DNA of 64,000 nt from an uncultured candidate division Zixibacteria bacterium (GCA_963735035.1 CAVTJJ010000004.1:1504001-1568000), one strand, 5' to 3'; numbered from the stretch's first letter, positions 6,977 to 54,234 are shown. Numbers and translations: made by a program. The notes: generated by a model from the letters alone, not told the origin.

Positions 6977-8279
6977 CTATTTCAGCAAGAGCATCTTCTT
7001 GGTGTCCTGGAAACCGGGGGCAGTAACCCGGTAGAAGTACACTCCGGTCGCAAGAGGGGCACCGGAATCGTCGTGGCTGTCAAATATCATGCGATGAACG
7101 CCCGCCTGAAGGTCTCGATTGACCAACATCCGAACGCGACGCCCTAACACGTTGAACACCTCAACTTCGACTCGCCCGGATCGGGGGAGACTCAATTCTA
7201 TTGTCGTAGTGGGGTTGAACGGGTTGGGATAGTTCTGTGCGAGATAGTAGTCGGACGGCAAGTTCAGTTCGCCCGGATTATCTACCACGTCAGTAATGGC
7301 TTTGACCGACACGCCGCCGGGACGGAAAATGGGCGTGATTACTTCGCTGCCGTCGGCAACTGTCAGGGTGAGGCGAGTCTGATATGAGATACCGATTGTA
7401 GTCGAATCTATTGTGATTATGCCGTTAGGGGCGGTCGGCGCGATCATAAAGTGCAGCGTGGCTATCGATCCCGTACCGGGGTCCAAGGGCAGGCCGTCAG
7501 CAAATTCGATCTTCGCGTACACTTGATGCACATCCGTCTGGGGTTGAATTGTCTTGCTGGGGGCTGTAAGGCAGCGAGTGCCCGTGAAAGTTACGGAATC
7601 TAGAGTCAAATCGGTGGAGCCATAGTCCAAAGCCAGCTCAATGGCCGCGACATTGCGTTCATTGTAGCCGAAAACGTCGACCGCTACCGGTGTGCCCGGC
7701 GCGGCTTCCACGTTGGCGATCCAGACCGAATCGAACGTGGTGGGAGTTTCCAGAATGCTCAACTGCCCGGGAATGAATTGTGGTTTGAAAGGCTGACTGC
7801 CTATGTAAGTACCAAAGTTATTAGAATGCTGTCTCAGGTCCACCATCCACGTGGTGCTGTCAATGCTTATTTGTTGGGGTGAGATGGTCTGAGAATAGGA
7901 GAGGTAGAGATGCCCCAGCAGGCCGCTGCCGACCGGGATCGGTGTGGTGCGCACAAAAGCGGTGATGGAGGCAATATTCGAATCGGCGTTGATCAAGACA
8001 TAACGGGTGTAGGCCGCCTGATCTAGGCGTCCGCCTGCAAACGAAAACGAGTCAATCTTGACCTGACTGGAATACTGGCGGAGTGTAATCTCCACGTAGC
8101 TGAGGTCCTCATCATTGACGAACCTGACTGGTACTACCCCGATGCCTGAGACAAAGGAAGTGACGGAATCGACCCTGACCGTATCCGGAGCACCCGGGTC
8201 GGGAGCCGCCAACAAGGGGGAGATTCCCCCAACAAAGAGCTAACGCTGTCAGAAAGAATAACTGTCTTGTTTTTCGCAT
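6977..8279 (-). CDS. Secreted protein with two cohesin-like beta domains and a T9SS type A-like C-terminal sorting domain; apparent +1 frameshift near 8216-8230
   Basis: C-terminus LAQNYPNPFNPTTTI..GVYFYRV..TKKMLLLK; repeated D(T/S)VxxxxV..V(P/D)V..N..DS(F/V)xFxG units; signal peptide MRKTRQLFFLTALALCWG starts at 8279 in a neighbouring frame. Confidence 0.85.
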
Positions 8280-39730: not shown

Positions 39731-39751
39731 ATTGCGCAAAGTTTGCACAAT
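39731..39751. promoter_or_regulatory. Near-perfect palindrome, candidate enhancer for a sigma54 activator
   Basis: ATTGCGCAAA-G-TTTGCACAAT, about 200 bp upstream of a -24/-12 element. Confidence 0.5.
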
Positions 39752-39938
39752 CCTGCATAGCGCACGAAGCTGCAACGGTTTAGAAGATAATTCAATATTA
39801 GAAAGAGACCGGTAACAGAGTACCTCCGGTCTATCTTAGTGGCACTAACCTGTTTGGGTGAGGCGGCTTAGGTGGCCTTGTGCGGCTTTGTGTTCGGGGA
39901 AGTTTTTTCCTATACCGATATGCGCGACAACAAGTTGG

Positions 39939-39954
39939 GGGCACGCCGTTTGCT
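39939..39954 (+). promoter_or_regulatory. sigma54-type promoter of the 40-47 kb operon
   Basis: GGGCACGCCGTTTGCT, with GG at 39940-39941 and GC at 39952-39953. Confidence 0.7.
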
Positions 39955-40016
39955 TTGTTGCGGGTTAGCTATAAGAACGGGCTGAAGACCGCCGGAGCGA
40001 GAATTTCTACGAGGCA

Positions 40017-42983
40017 ATGCATCGATTTCTAAAGACATTTTGCTGGTTACTTCTGCCTCTCTTATTGGCTGACTTTTCGGGACGTGCACAAGGTCAGTCT
40101 CCAGAAGAAGTTGCTCCCGGAGCTCTCGCCGCTATCGTTATTAATATTCCCCCGCACCAAATTGTAGGACATGCCTTGGTCGGACAGGCCAGTCTGCTGC
40201 TGCTGGACGAAACCGGAACGCTTCTGACGACTTACGATCTGGCCTCGAATCCCATCACTCTTTCTTGTTCCGTAGGCCAACTGACCCCAAATCTTATAAA
40301 CGATCCGAGTCTGTTTGCCGGAGGGGTGGTCAATCTGGCCGGCCTTCAGGTCTCATATCGTGGTCCTTCCGGAGCAACGGCGATAACGGCATCATCCACC
40401 GGAGTGAGTTCTACCGCCGTGCTGGTTTCGTTCAGCGGCTATGACATTCTCGACGTGCCGGGACTAAGCGCCGATACCGTCTCCCACCTGTACAGCAATA
40501 TTGCCACCGATATCTCGGTAACGGTTGTAAACGGGGGAGACCTGGTGGCCATTCAAGATCCCACCGTCAAAGCCTTCTTCCATTCAGGCGGCGGATCGAC
40601 CTCGGTATTCTTCGATGCTCAATCAAACGGGCGTCAGACCACCGTTCGGGTTGAGCTCCCGACCTCTGGTCTGTCGCTTGGCTCAGACACTCTGTTGCTG
40701 GTTCTGGAAAGCGTTTACCAGCCTAACGGTCAGGCAGTGAATGCCGGCGATACTCTGAGGATTCCCATAGTCGTTCTCGGGGGCGAGGGACTGCACATTG
40801 CAGCCGGAACCCTTGAGCCCAATTCCGCCTATGCCGGAATACCGTTTAACGTTTCATTTCTCGTAAGCACCGGCGGCATACAACAACCGTGGGACAGTGC
40901 CTCGTTCAGATTGGCGATGGTCTCGGCCACCGATTCGGTGCTTTCGACCGTTTACTCCGGACCGGTAGTCTACACCGATATCCGGCAGGACACTTTGGTT
41001 TACGGCGGAGTGACGGTACAAGTGCCGCCGGTGTTTCCGCCGGGAGCTTATCGGACTCTGTCAGATTATGCCTTGATGGCCGGTGGGCTCAGATTCCGAT
41101 CACATTTGCCCTATCGAGATACTTTGAACGTCCTTCCGGCACCGTCATTGACTTATCAAACCGGAACCCTGGCCCCGACAACGGTCATCGCCGGGCAAGA
41201 ATGGTCTTTTCACTTCGAAGTGTTGTTGGATGGCGATGCTCCGGTGTCGGTCGCCTCGGCGGATTCCTATTTCGAATTGAAGCTGGGCGATTTTTCCGCT
41301 GCCGTAGGTTTCCAGTTGACGGGTAATACGTTGTATCCGGGTTTGAATACGATCAGTACCCGGCGCCTGTTTATTCCTCCGGACCTGGTCGGTCAGTTGC
41401 CGGAGGCCGCCGCGGTGCTCTCGTACTTTCATCCCGGTTCGGCCAATCGCTTGTCATTCTCCACAGACTTCCAGGGACGGACAATTTTCGTTGAAGCCGC
41501 ACCGGAGATTCAAATAATCAACGCCACTGTTATTGCGCCCAACGCTCCGTCAGTAAATACGGGCCAATCTTTCAGGGTACACTGTCAGGTGGCCGACATG
41601 TCGGCGACTGCGATCGGGGCGTTCGATCTAAAGCTAACTACTGACGGTCAATCGCATTTTGATTCGCTTGCCACGGTGCCCGGGATCTCTGGCCACGACA
41701 CGTCCGACGTATATTTCGATGTGATCGCGGCGTCAAATCCGAATCCGGCGGAGATCCTAAGCGTGGATATAGCCACGCCCAACATCATTAGATTGAATCC
41801 GGTCAACAATATCGCCAAAGTGACCATACAGAGTCCGGCCGAACTGTCAACTTCCTTGATTCTCCGGGGAGCTGACAGCGGCTTTGTCGAGGTGGGTGGC
41901 GGGTTCGATCTGTTGCTCACGCTTGTGAACGCGGGTGAATCGAAGGCCACTCCCGGGGTATTTCATATCAGCACCAATGGCATGGACCTCGGTTTGCCGG
42001 GGGGTGTCACGGAGCTCGATCAGTCGGTAGCGGTCGGCGACGTGCATGCGATCTCATTCACGGCGCCGTCGTATGACACGGTCATAGTCCTCGACATCGT
42101 GCTTTCCCAGAAGCCAATTGACGAAAACACCGCCCTCCCGGCCATTGTTGGCGATACGGCCTTCCATATCGAGATTGCGGTAACAACTCCCGAAATCAAT
42201 CTGCACGTAGTCACATCGGATGTGCCCTCCAACGTGTTGCTGCCCGATGCTCTGTGCGATCTGGTCGTGTTCCGTGTGTCTAACCCGTCATTGTCGTCAG
42301 TATCCGACATCAAGATGCTCTCTATGAGCTTGACCCTGTTGGACCGCGATGCGCGTCCATTAACGGTTAGCGACGTGCTCAAAGTCGATTCGACCACGCT
42401 CCAGGTCGAGGGCAGAGTAGTGGCCCGTGCCTCTTCAACCGCTAATCGCTTGATACTGACTTTCAACGATTTTGTCGTTCCATCGCGTGATACACTGGAC
42501 CTGGTTCTCAATACGACCACGGCAGGTGCGACGGCTCCCGAGTTCACTCTAAGTCTAGAGACATCCGGTATCGTAGCCGCCTATGCGTCTGGACCTCGAC
42601 AGGGTACGGCCGTGGCCGTGACAAGTGACAGCTCCACCGGACTCGTGGTTGATGAAGTATTCACGATGGTCGACAGAACTCTGGCCGGCTCGTTTGTCGT
42701 GCGCACCAATCCGTTCGATCCGCTCACCGAACCCGCCGAATTTCGGTATTTTCTGGCCAAGGCTGAGGACGTGACGTTTGTCGTGCTCACTTTGACCGGA
42801 GAGACGGTCTACAGTCGCACTTTGTCGGCCGGCGAAACGGGCGCAGAGGCCGGCGAAAATGTGCTGTTCTGGGATGGACGCAACGACGACGAGGATGTGG
42901 TAGTCAATGGAGTATACCTCGCCATAATAAGCCTCGCCGATGATCGGGATCGCGCTACTATCAAACTGGCGGTGATCAAATGA
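40017..42983 (+). CDS. Large secreted multi-Ig-like protein with a FlgD-Ig/T9SS-like C-terminal domain
   Basis: Signal peptide; beta-rich repeats; C-terminal NPFDP..WDGRN..NGVY..IKLAVIK. Confidence 0.85.
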   Translation: MHRFLKTFCWLLLPLLLADFSGRAQGQSPEEVAPGALAAIVINIPPHQIVGHALVGQASLLLLDETGTLLTTYDLASNPITLSCSVGQLTPNLINDPSLFAGGVVNLAGLQVSYRGPSGATAITASSTGVSSTAVLVSFSGYDILDVPGLSADTVSHLYSNIATDISVTVVNGGDLVAIQDPTVKAFFHSGGGSTSVFFDAQSNGRQTTVRVELPTSGLSLGSDTLLLVLESVYQPNGQAVNAGDTLRIPIVVLGGEGLHIAAGTLEPNSAYAGIPFNVSFLVSTGGIQQPWDSASFRLAMVSATDSVLSTVYSGPVVYTDIRQDTLVYGGVTVQVPPVFPPGAYRTLSDYALMAGGLRFRSHLPYRDTLNVLPAPSLTYQTGTLAPTTVIAGQEWSFHFEVLLDGDAPVSVASADSYFELKLGDFSAAVGFQLTGNTLYPGLNTISTRRLFIPPDLVGQLPEAAAVLSYFHPGSANRLSFSTDFQGRTIFVEAAPEIQIINATVIAPNAPSVNTGQSFRVHCQVADMSATAIGAFDLKLTTDGQSHFDSLATVPGISGHDTSDVYFDVIAASNPNPAEILSVDIATPNIIRLNPVNNIAKVTIQSPAELSTSLILRGADSGFVEVGGGFDLLLTLVNAGESKATPGVFHISTNGMDLGLPGGVTELDQSVAVGDVHAISFTAPSYDTVIVLDIVLSQKPIDENTALPAIVGDTAFHIEIAVTTPEINLHVVTSDVPSNVLLPDALCDLVVFRVSNPSLSSVSDIKMLSMSLTLLDRDARPLTVSDVLKVDSTTLQVEGRVVARASSTANRLILTFNDFVVPSRDTLDLVLNTTTAGATAPEFTLSLETSGIVAAYASGPRQGTAVAVTSDSSTGLVVDEVFTMVDRTLAGSFVVRTNPFDPLTEPAEFRYFLAKAEDVTFVVLTLTGETVYSRTLSAGETGAEAGENVLFWDGRNDDEDVVVNGVYLAIISLADDRDRATIKLAVIK

Positions 42984-44809
42984 GACGAAGCATTCTCATC
43001 ATCGCTGTTGCGGTAGGGGCGGTTCTCATGACCTCACTTCCGGCTCGAGCCGGTGACGCCGGACAAGAGACTCCTTTCGTTTCTCTCGGAGCCGGGGCAC
43101 GATCGCTCGGTATGGGAGGAGCCTATTCGTGTCTGGTCGACGATGCCACGTCGATTCACTACAACCCCGCCGGACTGACTTCGCTGGACTATCAGGAATT
43201 CGCCTTCATGCACTCGGCGTTGATGGAAGGCAGTATCTACGATTTCGCCGCGTGGGCTTACCCCATAAATGAGAATCACGGCATCGGCGCGGGACTGATG
43301 AGAATCGGCACCGACAATATTATCCGGCGCGTCGATTTTGCCGACCGAGGGCGTTTCAGCTATTCCTACACGCAGGTGCTGCTGTCTTATGGACGCAAGA
43401 TCATCAAACCGGTATCAGCCGGCATGACGCTGCAGATATTTCAACAGTCACTTGACAGCCGTTCTGATTTCGGCATGGGCCTGGATGTCGGACTTCGGAT
43501 CCGATTGTGGAAGAGTCTCAATGCCAGTCTGGTAGCACACGATCTGCTTCAACATGATCTAGTACTGCTGGAGCGTCCCGAGAAGACCAACATGGTAGTT
43601 GTAGCCGGGCTCGGATTACAGAAGCTCACTCTGAGCAAAGACCTTCGCCTGGCACTCGATTTTGATGCCGAGAAGCAGGCCGATCGCGAATACAAAGCCC
43701 GCGCCGGGGGAGAAGTCACCATATATGACGTCTTGTCACTTCGTGGCGGATACGACCGTGATAACCTGAGCCTGGGGGTTGGATTCAAGTCCAAACGCAT
43801 TAGAATCGATTACGCTTACAAGTTCGTGGACTATACCGACGGCATGCATCACATCTCGCTGTCCTTCTTGTTGGGGATGTCGACGTCCGAGAGAATCCGT
43901 CAGCGTGAATTGGCCAAACTGCCGCCGGAACCGACGGCGGAAGAAAAGCAATTCGCCGCTCTGATGGAAAATGCCAATCGATTCTTCCGTCGCTTCCAAC
44001 TCGACTCCGCCAGCTACTATTTCTCACAGGCGTTGAAGATGCAGCCGGGTAATGAGGAAATCATCGGGACGCTGGCCGCGATCGAAGAGTCGCGGCGAGT
44101 GCAGGCGGCCCAGGAAGAAGCTCTGCGGGCGGCCCGCGAAGATGTACAGCAGACACTCCACAGTTTTGTCGCGCAGGCGGAGCAGATGCTCGACCGTAAG
44201 ATGTACCGGGCGGCGCTCGACCTCCTCAGTCTGATATTCGACATCGACCCGGGGAACGCTGAAGCGAATGCTCTCCGTGACCGAATCAATCAGGCACGGG
44301 GCGAAGAATTGGCCGTCAATCTGGCGAACGCCCAGAGCGCTGCGGCGGCTTCCAAATGGTCCGAGGCGGTGGAGGCATATAACCGGATTCTGGAAATCGA
44401 TCCCGAAAACGCCGATGCTTTGCAGGCTAAACGTCAGATTCTGACGGCTATGGATCTGCCGGAGAAAATCCGCATGGGCATCACGCTCTTCGAGAAGGGC
44501 GAACTAATCGAGGCGCGTTCCCGGTTCGAAGGCATCCTGTCGGTCAATCCGAATGATCCCACCGCACTGGACTATCTGAAACGAATCCGCGACAAAATGG
44601 CTACGCGGCCGCCGGCCACTCTCGAGGACTTGCAGAAGGATCGTGTCTACTGGGAGCTCTACCTCGAAGGACTTCGCCACATGCGTAACAAAGAGTATCA
44701 GCGGGCGATCGAAGTTTGGGAGAAGGTGCTCGAGGCTTACCCGAACAACGCCAACACGCTTAACAATATCGAACAGGCCCGGCTCCGTCTCGGCACCCAG
44801 GCCCAATAG
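42980..44809 (+). CDS. PorV/PorQ-like outer-membrane beta-barrel fused to C-terminal TPR repeats
   Basis: GARSLGMGGAY..DDATSIHYNPAGL, LRGGY and IDYAY motifs, then about 300 aa of TPR-like helices; overlaps the upstream stop (ATGA). Confidence 0.85.
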   Translation: MRRSILIIAVAVGAVLMTSLPARAGDAGQETPFVSLGAGARSLGMGGAYSCLVDDATSIHYNPAGLTSLDYQEFAFMHSALMEGSIYDFAAWAYPINENHGIGAGLMRIGTDNIIRRVDFADRGRFSYSYTQVLLSYGRKIIKPVSAGMTLQIFQQSLDSRSDFGMGLDVGLRIRLWKSLNASLVAHDLLQHDLVLLERPEKTNMVVVAGLGLQKLTLSKDLRLALDFDAEKQADREYKARAGGEVTIYDVLSLRGGYDRDNLSLGVGFKSKRIRIDYAYKFVDYTDGMHHISLSFLLGMSTSERIRQRELAKLPPEPTAEEKQFAALMENANRFFRRFQLDSASYYFSQALKMQPGNEEIIGTLAAIEESRRVQAAQEEALRAAREDVQQTLHSFVAQAEQMLDRKMYRAALDLLSLIFDIDPGNAEANALRDRINQARGEELAVNLANAQSAAAASKWSEAVEAYNRILEIDPENADALQAKRQILTAMDLPEKIRMGITLFEKGELIEARSRFEGILSVNPNDPTALDYLKRIRDKMATRPPATLEDLQKDRVYWELYLEGLRHMRNKEYQRAIEVWEKVLEAYPNNANTLNNIEQARLRLGTQAQ

Positions 44810-44868
44810 TGCCGGATTTTCCCCTTTTTACTGGCTTTTTGGTCCCACTTCAGGGATTTTGATGATCG

Positions 44869-46917
44869 ATGTTCTACAGACCGACGAAGGAAATCAACGC
44901 CGAATTCCCGGCTGAGGAAAAGTATCTAGATAGCATCCAGCGGGTCGTCAGGGAATCGTGTGCCTCCGCCGGTATGCAGCGCAAAGATACGTCCGCCGTC
45001 CTCCTCGCGATCGAAGAGGCCGCTACCAATATTATTCGTCACGCCTATCTCTACGAAAAGGGTACGATCCGGCTCCGCGTGACTATCTTCAGTCGCCAGG
45101 TTACTTTTTCGCTGATCGACTATGGCCGGTCGTTCCGTCCCGAAGGACAGGGGAAGCTTGATCTCGACCGCCTGATCGAGTCCGGACGACGGGGCGGGCT
45201 CGGTTTCTACATGATTCAAAAGATCATGGATTCGGTCGAATACGTATCCTGGGCGGGCCAGAACGAATTACGCATGACGCGTCGGCTGAAACGCGACGAT
45301 TCCAGCACTACCCCGCCGCTTTTCAGACGAATCCTGACTCTGCGCGTGAAGTTCTCGCTCTGGACTTTTCTCATTCTGTCGCTGATCATTGCCGGAGCTT
45401 TTTCCTTTGTCCAGCGTCGCACCACCGACGAGATCTACCGCCACATCGACGGCATAGCCGGGGCGCTCGGGAAGACCATTGCGGAGCAAGCAGCCCTGTA
45501 CGTCATCAATCGCAGAAGTGACGTCGAGTTCGACGAGTTGGTGGTGAGCTATGTCAGCTCCAACGACTTCATCAAGCGCCTGGTATTGACCGATACGACC
45601 GGCATCATCTTGGCCCACTCCGATGATATCCATAACATCAGGAAGCGATACGATCCGCCGCCGTGGTTCCGTCCTCAGGAAGCGGGCCAGCCCCAGCGCA
45701 CCCTGGCTATCGTTGGCGAGATTAACCTGCTGTCGTTGCCTATCAAGTCAGGGAATCAGTCGCTCGGGACGGTCTACCTGACCTATTCTTCTGAGCCGAT
45801 AGACGAGCGCCTCGCTGAATCGCGACGCTCCATCATCCTCGTTACCGCCGGACTCATGCTGGTGGGAATCATAGGCGTTTACCTGCTCTCCAATTACTTT
45901 GTACAGCCGATTGTCAACATCACTCGTCGTATCAGGCGTTTTACCCAGGGGGACCTCGAAACCGAGTTGCCCCTCGAAGGAGCCGCCGAATTCTTCGAAA
46001 TCTCGAGCGCTCTGAACGATATGATGACCCGTCTGAAGCACGATCGGGAAAGCGTGGTCGAACGGGAGCGCCTGGCCAAGGAAATCGAAGTCGCCTCACA
46101 GATTCAGAAAACGCTGCTGCCCCGGCAATTGCCCGAACTGCCCGATCTGGAAATCGATGCCTTCTATCGCGCGGCGTCGATGATCGGCGGCGATTTGTAC
46201 GATGTCTTCCGGATTGCGCCCGATCGGTGCTGCTTCATTGTGGCTGACGTATCGGGGAAGGGAGTGCCGGCATCACTGGTGATGTCAATGCTCCGGACCG
46301 TCATCAAGGTCCACGCGGCGGAATCGAGAACCGCCAAGGAAATTCTCGTTCTGGTGAACGAATACATAACGGACAACATCCCCAAGGGTATGTTCATCAC
46401 GGTGCTCATGGCCATCTATCATTCCGGTTCCCGGACCATGGAGTTGGTGTCGGCCGGCCACAATCCGCTTCTGCTTTATCGTGGGGCTTCGCGTCGCACT
46501 TCGAGATTCAACCCGTCCGGCATGCCTTTGGGCGTTCCGACGATGACGGGAAGCGACTTCGGGTCGTCCGTGGTTGAGATGAAACTGCAACTCGAAGATG
46601 GCGACGCGTTCATTCTGTACACCGACGGAATCACTGAAGCGGTCAACCGCGACGGGGAGCAGTATGGCCTGGATCGGCTCGAAAACTACCTCAATGGGCG
46701 GTGGAGCGGCGAGCCGGGGGAGAGTGTGAAAACCTTGTCGGAGGAGCTCATTCGAGAGCTTGACGCCTTCTCCGGGTTTACGCAGCAACGCGACGACATC
46801 ACCTTTATAATGGGGCGAACCCGATACTCAGCCGCACCCGAATCAACCTCCAAAGCGGTATCCGACGCGTCTATCAAACAGCAGTCTATCGGCGGTTCAA
46901 GCCCGGCTGAATCCTGA
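44869..46917 (+). CDS. Membrane protein: RsbW-type HATPase kinase + TM-sensor-TM + HAMP + SpoIIE/RsbU PP2C phosphatase
   Basis: EAATNIIRHAY, DYG and GGLG kinase boxes; two TM helices; GGDLYD, ADVSGKG, AGH, YTDG and DDIT phosphatase motifs. Confidence 0.92.
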   Translation: MFYRPTKEINAEFPAEEKYLDSIQRVVRESCASAGMQRKDTSAVLLAIEEAATNIIRHAYLYEKGTIRLRVTIFSRQVTFSLIDYGRSFRPEGQGKLDLDRLIESGRRGGLGFYMIQKIMDSVEYVSWAGQNELRMTRRLKRDDSSTTPPLFRRILTLRVKFSLWTFLILSLIIAGAFSFVQRRTTDEIYRHIDGIAGALGKTIAEQAALYVINRRSDVEFDELVVSYVSSNDFIKRLVLTDTTGIILAHSDDIHNIRKRYDPPPWFRPQEAGQPQRTLAIVGEINLLSLPIKSGNQSLGTVYLTYSSEPIDERLAESRRSIILVTAGLMLVGIIGVYLLSNYFVQPIVNITRRIRRFTQGDLETELPLEGAAEFFEISSALNDMMTRLKHDRESVVERERLAKEIEVASQIQKTLLPRQLPELPDLEIDAFYRAASMIGGDLYDVFRIAPDRCCFIVADVSGKGVPASLVMSMLRTVIKVHAAESRTAKEILVLVNEYITDNIPKGMFITVLMAIYHSGSRTMELVSAGHNPLLLYRGASRRTSRFNPSGMPLGVPTMTGSDFGSSVVEMKLQLEDGDAFILYTDGITEAVNRDGEQYGLDRLENYLNGRWSGEPGESVKTLSEELIRELDAFSGFTQQRDDITFIMGRTRYSAAPESTSKAVSDASIKQQSIGGSSPAES

Positions 46918-46995
46918 TTCCCCCAAGTTTTTTGTTGATGCCGCGATCTCAGTGCGGCGTAATTACATTTGTGATAAGATCGAATTGGCAAGTCT

Positions 46996-47667
46996 ATGGA
47001 TAATATAAAGATTTCGCTCTCTGAGGGTGGGCATGACCGTGAAGTCTCCGAGATCAGAGTTGATGGGGTAATCGACACTCTGACCGCGTCGGAATTGGAG
47101 CAGGTTTTCGATTCATTGTTGCGCCGTGGCCGCTATCGCATAGTCGTCGACTTGGCCGGTGTGGACTATATTTCTTCGGCCGGGTGGGGTATTTTCATCT
47201 CACACATTAAGGATGTGCGCGACAACGCTGGAGATGTTAAGCTGGCTAACATGGTGCCGGACGTTCGAGAGATTTTCGAATTGCTGGAGTTTGATAAGGT
47301 GCTTCAGGCTCTCAATTCGGTCGAGGACGCCGTCGCCAAGTTTGGCGGGACTTCGGGCGAGCCCCCAAAAAAAAAAGGGTCCGCGACAAGGGTTGAAGTA
47401 GTCGATGGGCTGGCGGGCGCATCCGGCTCGCGTGGTCGCACGGGTGAAGCCTTTACGACCGGCTCCACCTCCGAGCCCGACTTGGAGATGTTTGCCCTTC
47501 GCATGCTGAAAAGCGACCCGTTCGTTACCATTGCCGAAATTCAAAGAGACTATTCGCAGCAGGTGGAGGGGGGGAGTGTGGGCTGGTGGCGGGTCTTCTT
47601 TGTCCTCCGTCGACATGGATTGGTCCTCAAACGGTCGCGCTTTCGGTATGCCTGGGGTCGCGCCTGA
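46996..47667 (+). CDS. STAS (anti-anti-sigma) protein with a C-terminal HTH-like extension
   Basis: GVIDTLT..VDLAGVDYISSAGWG STAS motif; Gly/Ser linker; about 60-aa helical basic domain. Confidence 0.88.
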   Translation: MDNIKISLSEGGHDREVSEIRVDGVIDTLTASELEQVFDSLLRRGRYRIVVDLAGVDYISSAGWGIFISHIKDVRDNAGDVKLANMVPDVREIFELLEFDKVLQALNSVEDAVAKFGGTSGEPPKKKGSATRVEVVDGLAGASGSRGRTGEAFTTGSTSEPDLEMFALRMLKSDPFVTIAEIQRDYSQQVEGGSVGWWRVFFVLRRHGLVLKRSRFRYAWGRA

Positions 47668-47677
47668 ACGGTAGCCC

Positions 47678-47705
47678 TTGACGCCGGTGGCTATTTAGTT
47701 ATAAT
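47678..47705 (+). promoter_or_regulatory. sigma70 promoter of the diguanylate cyclase gene
   Basis: TTGACG-N16-TATAAT. Confidence 0.75.
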
Positions 47706-47739
47706 ACAATAGAATACGGCGCTTGGAGTCGGTTCGGTC

Positions 47740-49362
47740 ATGATGCAGACCGTGCTTCTTATCACACTCGCAGGACTTGTAGTCCTACTAACCACCCTTC
47801 TATTAGTACGGATAAGCCGCGAGCGGCGGATTTTCAAACCGCTTGGTCAATCGGAACTGGATCGATTTACTCAACTAATTCAGACGTCCATAGTCGAGGG
47901 AGATATTCAGACAGCCGCCACGCACGTCACCAATATGCTTCGCGAAAAATGCGGCGTTGAAAAAATCATCTTCCTGCGACGACGTGGCAGCTTGTTCGAG
48001 CTCAGCTACTATTCCGGCCTGGGGGATTTCAATCGACGAGTGCTGCAGGCCCGATATACGCAAGGGCTGATCGAAGTTCTCCGGTCGCATCTGGTCCCGG
48101 ATTCCATTGAACATCTACACGACCATTTGCCCAGGAAACTGGTAGAATGCCTTAATTCTTGGGGTTGTAACCTCTTCTTCCCGATATTTTGGCGCGACCA
48201 TCTCTACGGTATTTATTTCATCTCCGGGAACGAGCAGACTCGCACGCCGGCATTCCGTCTGGTTATTTCTTCAATGGCCCAGACGCTTTCGGCGGCCTAT
48301 CATGTCAAGTGGCATGAGCACAGACTGGGGCGTCTGCAGGAGCAGCTCACGTCTCTGGAAGCGTCACACAAGACACCGGCTGCCGAGACTCCAGCAGCGT
48401 CGACCAGGCTCATAAAGCTGGTGCGTCATCGCGATTCGGAAACGCTGGTAGGGCAGATCGTTGATGAAGTCCGCAAAGATTTGAAATTGGAGCGGTGCGC
48501 GTTTCTCTATTCGAAGAAAGATGATGAATCGCCCGTGCGGCTTCATTCCGACGGATCCCGCCTTCCGATTATTCCCCCATCGAGAGAATCTTTCGACCGC
48601 CTGCTGTCCCAGCTTGATCCGGCCGCCCCGTGTGAGATTGAGTGTTTGGGGCAGGTCGATGCCGCTCTTGCACCGCTCCAGAAAGGGCTGAGCGACGCGG
48701 GATTGAGTCATCTGGTGTCCTTCCAGTTGACTCCCAAACGGTCGGGAATTCTGGTCTGGTCCGATCGGCGGCCGACCGTTCAACTGGCGGCCGAAATTGG
48801 ACGCCATCGATTGACGGCGTCCGAACTGATGGCCAACGCCGAATCGTTCGAGGAGGTCGAGAGCCTCTCCTATACCGACAGTCTTACCGGTCTGGCCAAT
48901 TTGCGGTATCTCATGCGCCGTCTGGAGGAAGAAATTGATCGAGCCCGGCGTTACAGCCGCTCGCTGGCTCTGATAATGTTCGATCTCGACGACCTTAAGG
49001 GGATCAATGACCACTATGGCCATCAGGCCGGCGACCAGGTGCTGAGGCAACTGGGCGATTTGCTCCGAAAATCTCTGCGGTCCATCGATGTGGTGGCTCG
49101 GTATGGCGGCGATGAATTCTGTGTCATCATGCCGGAGTCAGATAGGGCAACCTGCGAGCAGTTTGTCAACCGGCTGCAGCAAAAGATCGCCGAAACGCGG
49201 TTTCATCTGGAGCAATCGGGAGGCGATGTCAAGTGTACCGCTTCGCTCGGTGGGGCTATTTTTCCGCAGAGCGCCGACGACCCGGAAAAGCTGATTTATG
49301 CCGCCGATATGGCCTTGCTCAAGGCCAAAGAGCTGGGTCGAAATCGGGCCATGGTGTCGTAG
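47740..49362 (+). CDS. Membrane-anchored diguanylate cyclase (GAF-like regions + GGDEF)
   Basis: N-terminal TM; DSLTGL; RSID I-site; intact RYGGDEF. Confidence 0.93.
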   Translation: MMQTVLLITLAGLVVLLTTLLLVRISRERRIFKPLGQSELDRFTQLIQTSIVEGDIQTAATHVTNMLREKCGVEKIIFLRRRGSLFELSYYSGLGDFNRRVLQARYTQGLIEVLRSHLVPDSIEHLHDHLPRKLVECLNSWGCNLFFPIFWRDHLYGIYFISGNEQTRTPAFRLVISSMAQTLSAAYHVKWHEHRLGRLQEQLTSLEASHKTPAAETPAASTRLIKLVRHRDSETLVGQIVDEVRKDLKLERCAFLYSKKDDESPVRLHSDGSRLPIIPPSRESFDRLLSQLDPAAPCEIECLGQVDAALAPLQKGLSDAGLSHLVSFQLTPKRSGILVWSDRRPTVQLAAEIGRHRLTASELMANAESFEEVESLSYTDSLTGLANLRYLMRRLEEEIDRARRYSRSLALIMFDLDDLKGINDHYGHQAGDQVLRQLGDLLRKSLRSIDVVARYGGDEFCVIMPESDRATCEQFVNRLQQKIAETRFHLEQSGGDVKCTASLGGAIFPQSADDPEKLIYAADMALLKAKELGRNRAMVS

Positions 49363-49521
49363 CCGGCATAGCCCCGGGTACCAGCCCGCTTTGGGCGTAT
49401 CTGTTTGAGCTTTACAGAGTTTCGGTCGGTTCGTATACTCCCTGTTTAAGTGTAGTCACAAGGCTGCCGACTTCTGTATTATACGGCGGCATAGAGGCCT
49501 GCAAGGATGGAGACCCAGAGA

Positions 49522-50475
49522 ATGGCTCGCAAGATTTTCGGACTCGTTCTCGTTTTACTATCACTCGGAACCACGGCCTTCGGCCAGGACTATGTTATCG
49601 GCGAAGGGGACATGCTCGATATCAGTTTCTGGCAGGAGCCGACTTACAACACCCAGGTCAGAGTGGGGCAGGACGGGAAAATTTCACTGGATATTATTGG
49701 GCAGATTGAGGCCGCCGGGAAGACGGCGGAACAACTTCAAAACGAAATTGTCCGCGAAATCTCCCGTTTGAACCGGACCATTTCCCAGGCCACGGTCAGA
49801 GTGACCGAGTACAACTTCAACTTCGTCTTTGTAATTGGCCAGGTCAACCAGCCGGGGAAGAAGAGTTTCGAGAAGATTCCCGATCTCTGGACAGTCATCA
49901 ACGAGTCTGGAGGCGTCAACCAGACCGGCGATCTCAGCCGGGTTACGATCATCAGAGGCGGGGACCAGGCCGGCAAGATCGAGACGGTTAACCTGGCGCA
50001 GGCCATAGCCACCGGTCAACTGGATAAACTACCCAAGCTCCGCCGTCAGGACACCATTGAAATCGGCCGGGCCCCCGGCCAGGGTGCCGCGGGCGATCTG
50101 GGCGGCCAAACCGAAAAGAAGAATCTGATCTACGTCATTGGCGCCGTCCGCACTCCCGGCTCGGTGACGTTTCAGGAGAATGTCGATGTTCTGGAAGCGG
50201 TAGCGCTGGCCGGCGGTCCAACCGACGCCGCCGATCTGAAGCATGCTCACCTGGTTCTCAAGGACGGCAACTACGCCGAGACCGTGAAGTTTGACCTGGA
50301 CAAATATGTATCCGAGGGTCGTCCCGCCCGATATATCATGCAGAAGGAAGACCTCGTGATAGTCCCGGCCGTACGTCCCGGCTTTCTCGACACGAGGCTG
50401 GGTCAGATCGCCACTCTCATGACGGCTCTGTCGACCGCCTATCTGCTTTATGATCGGATTCAGACCCGCAACTGA
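49522..50475 (+). CDS. Polysaccharide export protein (Wza/OPX family, SLBB domains)
   Basis: YVIGEGDMLDI..VGQDGKISL poly-export motif; VIGQVNQPG and VIGAVRTPG SLBB starts; start may be 49507. Confidence 0.9.
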   Translation: MARKIFGLVLVLLSLGTTAFGQDYVIGEGDMLDISFWQEPTYNTQVRVGQDGKISLDIIGQIEAAGKTAEQLQNEIVREISRLNRTISQATVRVTEYNFNFVFVIGQVNQPGKKSFEKIPDLWTVINESGGVNQTGDLSRVTIIRGGDQAGKIETVNLAQAIATGQLDKLPKLRRQDTIEIGRAPGQGAAGDLGGQTEKKNLIYVIGAVRTPGSVTFQENVDVLEAVALAGGPTDAADLKHAHLVLKDGNYAETVKFDLDKYVSEGRPARYIMQKEDLVIVPAVRPGFLDTRLGQIATLMTALSTAYLLYDRIQTRN

Positions 50476-50535
50476 TGGGTGGCACTTCCGGGGCTATGGC
50501 GTGTTTAAGGCCTGTGACTTTCCGGCCCGCGCCAG

Positions 50536-51669
50536 ATGACGATTATGGAAAACTACCGACTCAGCAGCAAGTTGCGCGAGAAAGATCGCGAATACCTGGT
50601 TCAGACGACTAATGACGTCGAGCACGGGTCTGTCTGTACGACCGTATTTGTTGACGGCATCAAGGCGGACACCTATAAGCAGCCGCACCCGGAGCCGCTG
50701 TCCGGCGAGGCGCTGCTGGATCTGGTCAAAACTACCCACGGTGAGCGGCGGTATGAGTTGGAAGCGATTCTTCAGGCCTATCAGGAAGTCTCACTTCAGG
50801 GTGACGCTCAGTCAATGTATCGATTGGCCACCGCGTTCTATTATCGCCGGTTCTACCACGAGGCGGCCGACCTGCTCGTGGGGGTGATTCGAACCGATCC
50901 GAGCTATCATCAGGCGCACTTTCTTCGGGGACTCACCTATCAGGCTCTGGGACAGAATGTCGAAGCGGTCAATTCCGCCGCCGAGGCCGTCAAGTATCGC
51001 CCGGGGTATGCAGACTACCGCAATAATCTGGGTGAGGCGCTGCTCTCGGCCGGAGCCATTTCCGAGGCTATCGCCGAGTTTGAAACCGCCATTTCGATCA
51101 ACATGTATTACGGTGAGGCTTATTTCAATCTTGGCCTGGCCCGGCTGTTGGAAGCTTCCCGGAGCAGTGATCCGGAGCATCGGCGCGACCTCGTGGGCCG
51201 CATCTCCGACCATTTCCGCAAAGCCGCCCTGATTTATCCCGACCTGGAGAATCATACCTGGTTCCGGGACGGCCTCACGTCGCTTGCTTCTTATGATTAC
51301 ACCGGCGCTCTGAGTGCCTTCAAGCGGGTGCGCGAAGCCCGCCGTGAAGTCCGTCGCCTCGAATTCATAGCGAATAACCAACGGATGATGACGCCGCGCG
51401 ATGCCTGGACGACTGAGGTGTTGGTCGAGCAGATTCGAACGCTGCAAATGCAAATTGCACAACATCCCGACTACCTGGATTTGCACATCGAGCTGGCCCG
51501 GTGCTATATGGAACAGGCGCGCTGGCAGTGGGCGCAGGCAATCGACGAGTGCCGCCGGATCATCGAGACGTACCCCGATGCGTCCTTTGTTGCCGACGCT
51601 CTGGAATCAGCCGGAACGACCGGTGAAGCCATCGAACGCACCTTCGCAATTCTGGACAAGAAAGGTTAG
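50536..51669 (+). CDS. TPR protein with a small N-terminal alpha/beta domain
   Basis: TPR motifs (YADYRNNLG, YGEAYFNLG, PDYLDLH); no signal peptide. Confidence 0.85.
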   Translation: MTIMENYRLSSKLREKDREYLVQTTNDVEHGSVCTTVFVDGIKADTYKQPHPEPLSGEALLDLVKTTHGERRYELEAILQAYQEVSLQGDAQSMYRLATAFYYRRFYHEAADLLVGVIRTDPSYHQAHFLRGLTYQALGQNVEAVNSAAEAVKYRPGYADYRNNLGEALLSAGAISEAIAEFETAISINMYYGEAYFNLGLARLLEASRSSDPEHRRDLVGRISDHFRKAALIYPDLENHTWFRDGLTSLASYDYTGALSAFKRVREARREVRRLEFIANNQRMMTPRDAWTTEVLVEQIRTLQMQIAQHPDYLDLHIELARCYMEQARWQWAQAIDECRRIIETYPDASFVADALESAGTTGEAIERTFAILDKKG

Positions 51670-51676
51670 ACTTAGC

Positions 51677-52477
51677 ATGGCCCGTCCCAGTGCTCCAATT
51701 ACCGATTACTTCACTCTCGAGTCACCTCTGGCGACCGAATACCGTCGTCTGCTTCAGAACCTGAAGCGGATGGAAGCCAAGGGCGAGCTTAAGGCCATTT
51801 TGATCACCTCGTCGGTGACGGGTGAAGGGAAATCGACCATTTCATCGCTTTTGTCCATCACGGCTGCGCGTAAAGGCCAGCGGACTATATTGATCGATTG
51901 CGATGTCCGGCGCCCCGCTATTCACCGGATGTTTCAGACGGAGCGTCACCCCGGACTGGTGGATGTGATCGGTGATGGCGTTTCGTACAAAGACGTCATC
52001 AGGAAGACCTCGATTGAGAATCTGGATTTGATTACGGCGGGCAAGGCGACGCCGCAACCGAGCGAGCTGTTCAATACCGGGGCGCTCGATGCTCTGTTTC
52101 GTGAATTGAAATTCTATTACGATCTGGTAGTGATCGACTCGCCGCCGGTCATCCCGGTGTCGGATCCGATGCTTCTGGCGCATTTTGTGGATGGCGTCAT
52201 ACTGGTCGTCAAGGCCGGTGAGACGGCGCGCGAGGTGGCGCTCCGGGCGGTCGAGATCATGACCAGCAACCGGGCGAATATCCTGGGGGTGGTGCTTAAC
52301 AACTCGAGGAACAGCCTTCCGTATTACTATGATTACACTCACTACCATTACAACTATAGCCAAAATCCTCAAGACGGCGAATCGCGCGGTCCCGGGCGTC
52401 ATCGCGACGGAACGCATTCTTCGGAAAATAATCGTCTCCCCGGTGAGTCGCAGGAAAAGAAGCGGTCACTCAACTAG
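51677..52477 (+). CDS. CpsD/CapB-family bacterial tyrosine kinase (cytoplasmic)
   Basis: EYRRL, TSSVTGEGKST, IDCDVRRP and IDSPP motifs; Tyr cluster YYYDYTHYHYNY; likely start ATG 51677. Confidence 0.93.
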   Translation: MARPSAPITDYFTLESPLATEYRRLLQNLKRMEAKGELKAILITSSVTGEGKSTISSLLSITAARKGQRTILIDCDVRRPAIHRMFQTERHPGLVDVIGDGVSYKDVIRKTSIENLDLITAGKATPQPSELFNTGALDALFRELKFYYDLVVIDSPPVIPVSDPMLLAHFVDGVILVVKAGETAREVALRAVEIMTSNRANILGVVLNNSRNSLPYYYDYTHYHYNYSQNPQDGESRGPGRHRDGTHSSENNRLPGESQEKKRSLN

Positions 52478-52497
52478 ATCGATACGGGAATCTATTC

Positions 52498-53361
52498 ATG
52501 CAGCCCAATCTGCTGACAGTCGATCTTGAGGAATGGTTTGTTGTCGAGGCTTTGGCCAATCGGTTCTCGCCCGATGACTGGCCCTCCCTGCAATCGACAC
52601 TTCAGCGCAACTGTACGAGGTTGCTCCGCCTGTTTGCCCACCACGACGTCAGGGCGACCTGGTTCGTTCTCGGATGGTGTGCCGAGCGATTCCCGGCTCT
52701 GATCGCACGCATCGCTGAGCAGGGTCACGAAATCGCCTGCCACAGCTACGCGCATCGGATGGTTGACAAGATGACTCCGGATGAGTTCCGTCTGGATACC
52801 CGCCGCGCCGTCAATGCTATTATTGAATCATCAGGTGCGCGACCGGTCGGATATCGAGCCCCGAGCTGGTCATTGTCCGAGAAGGTGCCGTGGGCGTTCG
52901 AGATTCTATCGGACCTTGGATTCGAGTACGACAGCTCGATCTTCCCGATAAAGCACGATCTGTACGGCATGCCTGAGGGACCGCGCAAGCTCTTCCGGAT
53001 GGCTTTCTCCGGCGACCGTTTCCTCTACGAAGCGCCCGCCTCGACCGTGCGCCTCTGGCGCCAGAACTTTCCCATCGGCGGCGGCGGTTACTTGCGCCAT
53101 TCGCCCTACTGGTACAGCCGTATGATGATCCGCAAGGTGAACAAGACGGGTATGCCGGTTATGGTCTACGTTCACCCGTGGGAAGTCGATCCTGACCCGC
53201 CGCCCGTGTCAGGTCTTTCGCCGGTGCAACGACTGAGAACTTACGGCTCTACGGCGACTCTGGAAGCGAAATTAGATCGGCTTCTGTCAGATTTCTCGTT
53301 CATGCCGGTCAGTGACTACATTCGCAGCACTACGAAACAGCGGATCGGTTTCGAGCGCTGA
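52498..53361 (+). CDS. Polysaccharide deacetylase of the PEP-CTERM/EPS-locus type
   Basis: TVDLEEWF, HEIACHSYAH, GYRAPSWS, GGGYLR and HPWEVD motifs. Confidence 0.93.
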   Translation: MQPNLLTVDLEEWFVVEALANRFSPDDWPSLQSTLQRNCTRLLRLFAHHDVRATWFVLGWCAERFPALIARIAEQGHEIACHSYAHRMVDKMTPDEFRLDTRRAVNAIIESSGARPVGYRAPSWSLSEKVPWAFEILSDLGFEYDSSIFPIKHDLYGMPEGPRKLFRMAFSGDRFLYEAPASTVRLWRQNFPIGGGGYLRHSPYWYSRMMIRKVNKTGMPVMVYVHPWEVDPDPPPVSGLSPVQRLRTYGSTATLEAKLDRLLSDFSFMPVSDYIRSTTKQRIGFER

Positions 53362-53565: not shown

Positions 53566-54234
53566 ATGAAGAGAATGCTCATTTGCGGCCTCTTATTGCT
53601 TATGGCCGCACCGATGGTTGAGGCTCGCCGGAAGGAAAAGAAGGTCGGCGAAATTGCCGGCGATTTGTTCAAGGACAGCGAATACGGATTAGAAATCAAG
53701 CTCCACCAGAACTGGAAGCCAAAGATTGGCAAAGAGGGTGCGAAGGTCAGGCTCACTCTCTTACAGCGTAATTACAGTGTCCCGTCTGACTACACCAACG
53801 CTCCGGACTACACTCAGATTCCACTGGTGATCTTGTACGTAGACACGACCACGCTTGGTCCGCACGCTTTCATTGATTCGCTGGCCTCGCAGACTTTCAA
53901 ATCGGGCCAGAAGAATGCCATCTATAAGGAATTCGAAATCCTCGCCGAGCCGGATCTGATTCCGTTGCAGCGTACTCGAATGGATATCGCCGGCCAGTCA
54001 GCGCTGATGTGGAAAGTCCGGGCCAACTACAAGAAGGACATCGAGACGTCGACCGGTTCCTCTACCTATAAGAAGGTGAGCCGCAGCTTTGGAGGCGCTA
54101 TCGCCGCGGTCAAAGTCGGCCAGAACATAGTGCTGTTCTACGTCCGGACCGAATGGGAGTTCTTTGATCCCGTCCTGAGCGAGGTCATGCCCATGATCGA
54201 GAGCCTGAAGATCCAGCAGCAGGAGGAAGGCTAG
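53566..54234 (+). CDS. Exported hypothetical protein
   Basis: Signal peptide; candidate promoter TTGACT at 53497; FxDxxYG..W start faintly resembles PsbP/DcrB-like folds. Confidence 0.75.
   Translation: MKRMLICGLLLLMAAPMVEARRKEKKVGEIAGDLFKDSEYGLEIKLHQNWKPKIGKEGAKVRLTLLQRNYSVPSDYTNAPDYTQIPLVILYVDTTTLGPHAFIDSLASQTFKSGQKNAIYKEFEILAEPDLIPLQRTRMDIAGQSALMWKVRANYKKDIETSTGSSTYKKVSRSFGGAIAAVKVGQNIVLFYVRTEWEFFDPVLSEVMPMIESLKIQQQEEG

Follow-up and report, generated by a model that had tools for sequence, protein, structure and literature searches.

What does a partner switch govern when no sigma factor gene lies within its locus, and what does it sense when its neighbours encode a secreted surface protein and an outer-membrane barrel? 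Both questions are raised by a locus at positions 39731..53361 of a 64,000-nucleotide stretch of DNA (the window; G000:C4:1504001-1568000) from an uncultured candidate division Zixibacteria bacterium, the source assembly of which comprises 3.6 Mb and is 97% complete. An earlier interpretation made from this DNA alone (the sequence-only reading) had described nine co-oriented genes behind a sigma54-type promoter; all nine open reading frames, here called A to I, were found at that span on the + strand, no sigma factor gene is present within the locus, and the catalytic motifs of its enzymes are intact and conserved across orthologues. The cluster is real, deeply conserved and modular. The overall explanation favoured here, a modular trans-envelope partner switch, is one to which we assign about even chances. 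A SprA-type translocon would export the surface protein A, and the barrel B would hold it at the cell surface; a periplasmic tetratricopeptide repeat (TPR) arm of B would bind the Cache domain of the membrane sensor C and thereby set its kinase/phosphatase balance. As suggested by family and adjacency, C would both phosphorylate and dephosphorylate the STAS protein D, which would act on something other than a sigma factor, with the neighbouring membrane cyclase E as the likeliest candidate; the cyclic di-GMP (c-di-GMP) made by E would lead on to an XrtA-type exopolysaccharide (EPS), the export genes being next in order. In families f1 and f4, RNA polymerase would also slip on a run of 9-11 A residues, such that each cell would make a short STAS protein (~130 aa) together with a STAS protein bearing a helix-turn-helix (HTH) tail (~222 aa).

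Neighbourhoods were counted in 107 loci related by kinship, 56 of them from the close set (family label assumed), with the loci having enough flank as denominators. The barrel was present in 86/96, the cargo with its C-terminal domain (CTD) in 82/96, the STAS gene in 79/95, the cyclase in 74/89 and Wza in 73/87. Loss of gene order in related genomes had been named beforehand as the outcome that would speak against the proposed system; the order was found to be conserved, and this extends to distant families in which the flanks differ, where it reads A-B-C-(ParA-like)-D-E-F-Wzz-G-H(-I), and the cluster is kept without the rny-ymdB-folD flank in f5, f9, f10, f16, f17 and one f18 locus. A paralogous module repeats the cargo, PorV-TPR, Cache-HAMP-PP2C and STAS genes in 10/10 loci (L102-L108, L203-L205; e.g. 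L104:2-13943); its cargo is of 2000-2900 aa, and it continues with a STAS-kinase fusion and a STAS protein before ending in a GAF-PAS histidine kinase; EPS genes are absent from it. This module was not seen in the window genome, in which the search gave one match. Profile searches with the TPR region of B were dominated by generic TPR proteins, and the best 120 matches with D were close relatives only.

The firmest link in the system is that between the periplasmic TPR and the sensor, which gene context supports well and complex prediction weakly. Gene C (44869..46917, + strand) encodes an RsbW-like serine kinase, a periplasmic Cache-like domain and a PP2C phosphatase in one chain, in the order HATPase_c_2, transmembrane (TM) segment 163-181, sCache_3_2 (a weak match), TM segment 322-340, HAMP and SpoIIE. 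The kinase domain matches PF13581 (E 4e-26), with ATP-binding motifs in 92-98 of 98 orthologous stretches, and the phosphatase domain PF07228 (E 2e-43), with the PP2C motifs (metal-binding aspartates) in 85-92 of 93. A TPR gene lies directly upstream of C in 100/101 loci, among them those that lack barrel and cargo: in families f19 and f20, a signal-peptide TPR protein without a barrel stands directly before C in 9/9 loci, with no cargo there, and it matches the arm of B and its conserved last repeat. The sequence-only reading had passed the signal through the TPR proteins of the locus to the inner-membrane sensor. This is likely for B; G, the second TPR protein, is predicted to be cytoplasmic, and hence only the TPR of B can be the periplasmic relay. 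Modelling of the TPR-sensor complex, which had been proposed as a check, gave 0.60 for the TPR of B with the periplasmic domain of C and 0.00 for the best of three controls, with 100% agreement among runs and a partner predicted local distance difference test score (pLDDT) of at least 80. The mark used was reached by 116/157 solved pairs and 2/215 mismatched pairs, and at 0.60 or below by only 18 solved pairs and both mismatched pairs; given the gene-context prior, the prediction adds a little, as weak support. We thus consider it likely that the TPR arm of B couples to C.

Other sensors and switches were encountered alongside C. Cache-HAMP matches in f13-f15 were rejected, these being loci of a TonB receptor, YfiR and a histidine kinase and not of the partner-switch system; in L199 and L200 (f13, f15) the order is TonB receptor, YfiR/HmsC-like protein and CHASE8-HAMP histidine kinase, and gene runs of similar size occur in L201 and L206. 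In L195, one of the f19/f20 set (L188-L189, L192-L198), hrcA-grpE-dnaK follow the sensor gene. The window genome holds two further phosphatase-kinase-STAS triads (G000:C6:177629-180749 and C4:1486377-1488436), one of them beside chemotaxis genes, and a lone STAS gene at C4:220226; cross-talk with other switches is possible.

Immediately upstream of C, gene B (42980..44809, +) encodes a PorV/PorQ-family outer-membrane barrel (~residues 24-300) with a C-terminal TPR arm (~320-609). It scores 98.6 bits against NF033709 (cut-off 90), with Pfam matches for the TPRs, the last of which is the most conserved; the assignment is to the PorV/PorQ family, not to PorV, PorQ or PorV2 proper. The arm is predicted to be periplasmic since, by established barrel topology, an even-stranded barrel should place it there. 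Gene A (40017..42983, +) encodes a probable surface cargo of 988 aa ending in a FlgD_ig/type IX secretion system (T9SS)-type CTD, with homologues of 870-1990 aa in relatives. In its AlphaFold model (pLDDT 89) the chain is all-beta and made up of some eight Ig-like domains. The CTD scored 24.9 bits with FlgD_ig, below the Pfam cut-off of 27, and 27.7 in the genome search; no match to TIGR04183/04131 was listed in NCBIfam, and the Foldseek matches of A, all to generic Ig chains and with low TM-scores, were set aside for yielding no function. A full SprA homologue over its cut-off is encoded at G000:C6:283230-289334, and SprA was matched in 40/41 genomes searched; with the CTD at cut-off level, A is a probable T9SS cargo. 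The genome also encodes some ten PorV-family proteins, several directly after CTD genes, 38 FlgD_ig matches and a partial SprA paralogue of 377 aa (C4:975748).

A number of observations weigh against a single fixed chain from cargo to polysaccharide. Within the order, the housekeeping flanks are as syntenic as the cluster, for which reason synteny there was rejected as proof. Cargo A is missing in 14/96 loci, and among close relatives it has been lost in 4/45, all with a divergent barrel. The f19/f20 loci hold only the signal-peptide TPR gene in front of C, and their D and E genes lie in other places; in f3, D has moved far from C and E (0/5 loci adjacent), the cyclase staying in place; in f7/f8 (L167-L170) G, the gene for the cytoplasmic TPR protein, has a further copy directly after D, and the f7 loci are without cyclase or Wza nearby. 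The GGDEF motif of E is non-canonical in both f2 loci though D stays, and E and F have separate promoters of their own. Neither Wzz nor a polymerase or flippase was found in the window locus (the last two were not searched for genome-wide), and the two motor and ring components searched for, GldM and GldN, were not found in the genome, with uninformative controls; the type IX system to which SprA belongs may be divergent or may lack a motor. Finally, flagellar genes, FliA and numerous extracytoplasmic function (ECF) sigma factors are encoded in the genome, and a sigma factor or FlgM is a possible target. These locus exceptions, together with the paralogous module, argue for a core of TPR and sensor with cargo and barrel as the usual input and an output that varies.

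Accepting such a core, the TPR itself may be the real sensor partner, reporting the state of the envelope or of secretion, with barrel and cargo as later passengers or a structural anchor that carries no signal. This somewhat unlikely alternative draws on the barrel-less TPR of the f19/f20 loci, on the four close losses of cargo, on the many CTD-PorV gene pairs in the genome without any sensor and on a likeness to the PorE-PorP-cargo complex (PMC9143113). From C onward it is the same as the favoured trans-envelope switch, and it has to face the occurrence of cargo, barrel-TPR and sensor together in 82/96 loci and in all ten paralogous modules. The earlier proposal of a T9SS-like surface protein as the input retains its CTD, SprA and its presence in most loci, but the protein is dispensable in the loci above; that cargo A is the true input is put forward here as a tentative suggestion, a little short of an even chance.

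On the cytoplasmic side, D (46996..47667, +) comprises a STAS domain with the phospho-acceptor motif DYISSAG and a HTH tail, 223 aa in frame 0. It exceeds the TIGR00377 cut-off, and S60/S61 are invariant in 49 sequences. By analogy with other partner switches, C very probably acts on D. Directly after D in 79/90 loci, including f18-f20 where C lies elsewhere, is the cyclase gene; in the window, E (47740..49362, +) encodes a membrane-anchored diguanylate cyclase with TM segment 5-23, tandem GAF-like domains and a GGDEF domain with an RxxD I-site, and GG[DE]EF and RxxD are found in 84/87 orthologues. Homology of its GAF region to the kinase of the paralogous module was considered and rejected at a probability of only 17% (one kinase compared). 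The route from STAS through c-di-GMP to EPS had been part of the sequence-only reading; gene adjacency speaks for it, and the displaced STAS gene of f3, the paralogous module ending in a histidine kinase without EPS genes and the lack of polymerase and flippase in the locus speak against. Control of E by D is perhaps marginally less probable than its absence.

The tail of D may point to another output. It is modelled as a HTH fold with helices of pLDDT >90, 24/57 D tails match HTH_Tnp_Tc3_2, and structural comparison ranks HTH domains first (Z <=6.8); a Foldseek search of the tail returned nothing at E 0.001 or better, and an Atlas search no usable match. The tail is present in 228/285 genomes of the phylum, nearly always once, and is retained when D moves. 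In 21 loci of f5, f9, f10, f16 and f17, moreover, C ends in a transposase-like bipartite HTH (HTH_28/29/32), with a ParA-like gene next in order; at L150:8320-11951 and similar loci, the sensor HTH is followed by an acidic tail, and the next gene encodes a ParA/BcsQ-like ATPase. The HTH domains of the D and C tails bear a weak resemblance to each other (probability 36%, E 4e-4). Judged from its model, the D tail probably binds nucleic acid, and because of this tail and the HTH/ParA layer at the sensor, a DNA-linked output may exist beside or instead of cyclase control. Its strong form, in which the main output is DNA-linked, STAS-HTH (with the sensor HTH and ParA-like ATPase in distant families) regulating transcription or positioning the complex on the nucleoid, and the short STAS titrating the kinase at a ratio set by slippage, is unlikely: structural matches of Z <8 are generic, a hydrophobic WW/F face on the putative recognition helix could serve for contact with protein or membrane, and alignment of related regions revealed no shared operator-like motif before D, E or F beyond promoter boxes.

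Between STAS and tail lies an A10 run (47367..47376, +), a probable programmed transcriptional slippage site. Slipped D messages in the window genome were computed to give STAS-only products of 132-135 aa. A run of A9-11 is present in 55/57 loci having both STAS and tail (one a duplicate), with the tail in frame in 14, at -1 in 37 and at +1 in 4; the two loci without a run are those of f2, with the tail in frame. In metagenome contigs, A9-10 was found in 51/55 loci (33, 17, 1), the four without it being ParA-type loci with the tail in frame; the metagenome loci likely overlap with the 57. A further 40 loci comprise three from f4, all with the run, and 37 of other families, none with it, 36 of these being in frame. 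Such runs are rare, there being only eight A/T runs of at least 9 in the whole 3.6 Mb genome; AAG is the commoner lysine codon, and 0/87 stretches of three lysines in long open reading frames are spelled as nine A's. Out-of-frame tails are open to full length, and their ratio of nonsynonymous to synonymous differences (pN/pS) is 0.28 (13 sister pairs), compared to 0.24 for in-frame tails (5 sister pairs); these values, partly saturated, show purifying selection on the tail whichever frame it occupies. An early dN/dS of 0.47 for out-of-frame tails, from 11 pairs chosen by low pS, was discarded in favour of the tree sister pairs. No start codon precedes the HTH in 23/41 out-of-frame loci. When mapped on a C tree built by a quick method from 83 rows, with f3, split-C and partial loci omitted, the four frame states need 12 changes, at least six being forced for the in-frame state by starred branches.

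The features expected of slippage, namely a conserved A/T run of at least 8, a conserved downstream frame and shifts in both directions, are all found, and from these sequence patterns it is very likely that recoding of D gives two forms, short STAS and STAS-HTH. Phase variation at the run, ribosomal -1 frameshifting and an error of assembly are, taken together, a quite unlikely alternative. Ribosomes too can shift at A_AAA_AAA/G (PMC3711429), 37 of the 41 out-of-frame cases need -1, and other genes in the assembly are split at A/T runs; yet four loci need +1, and 3' of the run there is no strong stem (mean z -0.5, 38 loci), with Shine-Dalgarno-like words in 10/38. Because of the two shift directions and these weak ribosomal stimulators, transcriptional slippage is favoured. 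The length of the run stays at 9-11 as the frame shifts through indels outside it, and the 14 in-frame loci keep A10 despite the AAG preference. Frame states also cluster by clade (0/200 shuffles), making random assembly error unlikely. Other A10 runs occur inside an apparent zinc anti-sigma gene (C3:550132), in the last part of an accC-like gene (C3:304857) and between yidC-like and mnmE-like genes (C4:114435); folC-like and coaBC-like genes are split at or near A9-10 runs (C3:25012, C6:309904), and a primary-type sigma gene is split at C6:63810-64668 (all labels by eye), and these three splits are probably assembly errors and possibly slippage. Neither the run nor the HTH/ParA layer had been remarked upon in the sequence-only reading.

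The weakest alternative, a sigma-directed switch in trans in which C or D controls a sigma or anti-sigma factor encoded elsewhere (FliA/FlgM), joining motility with adhesion and leaving cyclase and EPS genes as co-regulated neighbours, has on its side FliA and a full flagellar cluster in the genome, the separability of D and E in f3, the promoter of E and the precedent of HsbR-HsbA in Pseudomonas (PMC8256260), but is improbable in view of the position of D before the cyclase and of the lack of any SigB/SigF-type factor among 18 region-2 matches (judged by size and context only).

Returning to the favoured trans-envelope switch, its genes do not appear to be transcribed as one operon. The sigma54-type -24/-12 promoter lies at 39939..39954 (+; 11/12 of the consensus), a score of at least 9/12 was reached in 46/53 related upstream regions as compared to 1.9 in shuffles, and rpoN is encoded in the genome. 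TGCA-repeat palindromes at 39732..39759 (+) form a probable enhancer (activator-binding) element of this promoter, and a TGCAA..tT.CATA motif recurs upstream in an alignment of 42 related regions. Sigma70-type promoters precede E (47678..47705, +; 11/12) and wza, i.e. F, with its downstream genes (49411..49439, +; 10/12); the former scores at least 10 in 36/84 related regions (0.6 when shuffled) and the latter 10 in 30/83 (4.1 shuffled), and the conservation of both is seen chiefly in f1 and f4. Because of these conserved promoters the block probably forms three transcription units, A-D, E and F-I, such that the notion of a single sigma54-driven cluster survives for its promoter and not for its extent. 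A riboswitch scan of the window detected none, only a tRNA.

The last unit contains the polysaccharide genes. F (49507..50475, +) encodes a Wza/OPX export protein closest to the XrtA-system type; G (50536..51669, +) a TPR protein with no signal peptide or TM segment, and hence probably cytoplasmic; H (51677..52477, +; probable start 51677) a BY-type tyrosine autokinase with a C-terminal Tyr cluster (TIGR01007 167, cut-off 108), for which two BY-kinase patterns matched just 22/72 and 31/72 stretches and were not used; and I (52498..53361, +) an XrtA-system polysaccharide deacetylase with motifs conserved across orthologues (TIGR03006 313, cut-off 276), the only protein to pass its XrtA cut-off. 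A Wzz co-polymerase gene is present in 46/87 related loci and absent from that of the window, a point not mentioned in the sequence-only reading; a Wzz-like paralogue (32%) is encoded at G000:C4:293955. It lies within C4:283486-295478 beside genes for an epimerase, UDP-glucose dehydrogenase, an asnB-like protein, an acyl-CoA ligase and carrier proteins (labels by eye), a candidate biosynthesis locus for the exported polysaccharide, and an exosortase is encoded at C4:321440. Elsewhere in the window, positions 53566-54234 encode a conserved secreted-looking protein of 222 aa before lapA-lapB, without Pfam or NCBIfam match and outside the cluster in distant families, and 188-27576 hold a large flagellar cluster with a 731-aa flagellin and a TPR glycosyltransferase-like gene, inside which an inverted CTD-bearing gene is found (6977-8215).

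The switch-to-cyclase logic is known already; new in print would be the T9SS-type input and the recoded STAS-HTH. If the proposed switch is correct, PorV-family barrels would gain a signalling role beyond the shuttling of cargo, type IX-like secretion biology would extend to Zixibacteria, and cargo, barrel-TPR, Cache-PP2C and STAS would constitute a reusable input module, one copy of which is joined to a cyclase and another to a histidine kinase. The slippage site would be a rare natural case of a frame flipped many times across two families around a fixed run in a signalling protein. A new class of surface signalling that combines all of these, with a cargo-barrel-TPR-Cache switch, two slippage-derived STAS isoforms and outputs both to c-di-GMP and, through a transposase-derived HTH, to DNA, is a fairly unlikely outcome. 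The literature search found neither the combination nor the fused TPR input, T9SS-type input or recoded STAS-HTH in print, nor any paper joining four of PorV, TPR, SpoIIE, STAS and T9SS or, among the papers listed, naming Zixibacteria, in agreement with the earlier statement that no system of this composition is known to have been described.

Trans-envelope routes to c-di-GMP are known, as with YfiBNR, and the syp locus of Vibrio fischeri also has Wza/Wzc-like genes under sigma54. The RsbW-like kinase, PP2C phosphatase and STAS serine place the Zixibacteria locus among partner switches of the RsbU/V/W type and, with no cognate sigma in the locus, apart from the canonical sigmaB/sigmaF switches. 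That partner switches may control polysaccharide without a sigma factor, as the sequence-only reading noted for Syp, Sia and Bgr, is documented for SypE-SypA (PMC4517449; PMC8256260), and a further STAS-based example is described from Anabaena (10.64898/2026.04.08.717354). STAS control of diguanylate cyclases is documented for the SiaABCD (Pseudomonas aeruginosa), BgrRSTUWV (Sinorhizobium meliloti) and HsbR-HsbA-HsbD systems, which share with the present locus a phosphatase, a Ser/Thr kinase and a STAS-like protein beside a cyclase, without a sigma factor (PMC8457831). Unlike these, the Zixibacteria locus joins kinase and phosphatase in one chain with a membrane Cache sensor between them, and it has genes for PorV-TPR and CTD cargo upstream, a STAS protein with HTH tail and slippage site, and a cyclase with a TM segment and tandem GAF-like domains. 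Its proteins fall below the SiaA/SiaD models (NF038263, 61 vs 700; NF038266, 156 vs 290), and D, a STAS protein, had no match to the SiaC-type DUF1987 in Pfam. With SypE-SypA, the locus shares a dual kinase/phosphatase acting on a STAS protein in a polysaccharide locus without a sigma factor (PMC4517449; PMC8256260). As a response regulator, however, SypE takes its input from a phosphorelay, and it has a receiver domain where the membrane sensor C has TM-Cache-TM-HAMP between kinase and phosphatase, and SypA is a single-domain protein whereas D carries a tail.

The remaining parts likewise have counterparts. XrtA/PEP-CTERM-associated EPS genes resemble F-I in that the deacetylase exceeds its cut-off, Wza, the kinase and the distant Wzz-like gene are closest to XrtA models and an exosortase is present in the genome; F-I differ in that only the deacetylase passes its XrtA cut-off and the biosynthesis genes lie elsewhere. 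Programmed transcriptional slippage is known from dnaX of Thermus and tssM1 of Citrobacter (PMC5009743; PMC3711429; PMC4256274), with which D shares a run of 9-11 A, short and long products with a common N-terminus and a long form in or out of frame by lineage; no case for a STAS or partner-switch gene was found in a literature search that did not cover the supplements of PMC3711429 and a bioRxiv preprint. Type B CTD cargo with a cognate PorP/SprF shuttle (PMC12618676) and the PorE-PorP-PG1035 complex (PMC9143113) share with A and B the linkage of a cargo gene to its own 14-strand-type barrel and a periplasmic TPR partner on that barrel; the Zixibacteria barrel differs in scoring with the PorV/PorQ family, in the fusion of its TPR and the pairing with a sensor gene, and in its occurrence outside the Bacteroidota. 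In PorA-PorXY of Porphyromonas gingivalis, the CTD of a T9SS cargo binds a histidine kinase directly (PMC12152298), thus linking, as is proposed for A, a T9SS cargo to an inner-membrane sensor, whereas in Zixibacteria this link would run through a barrel-fused TPR to a Ser/Thr partner switch.

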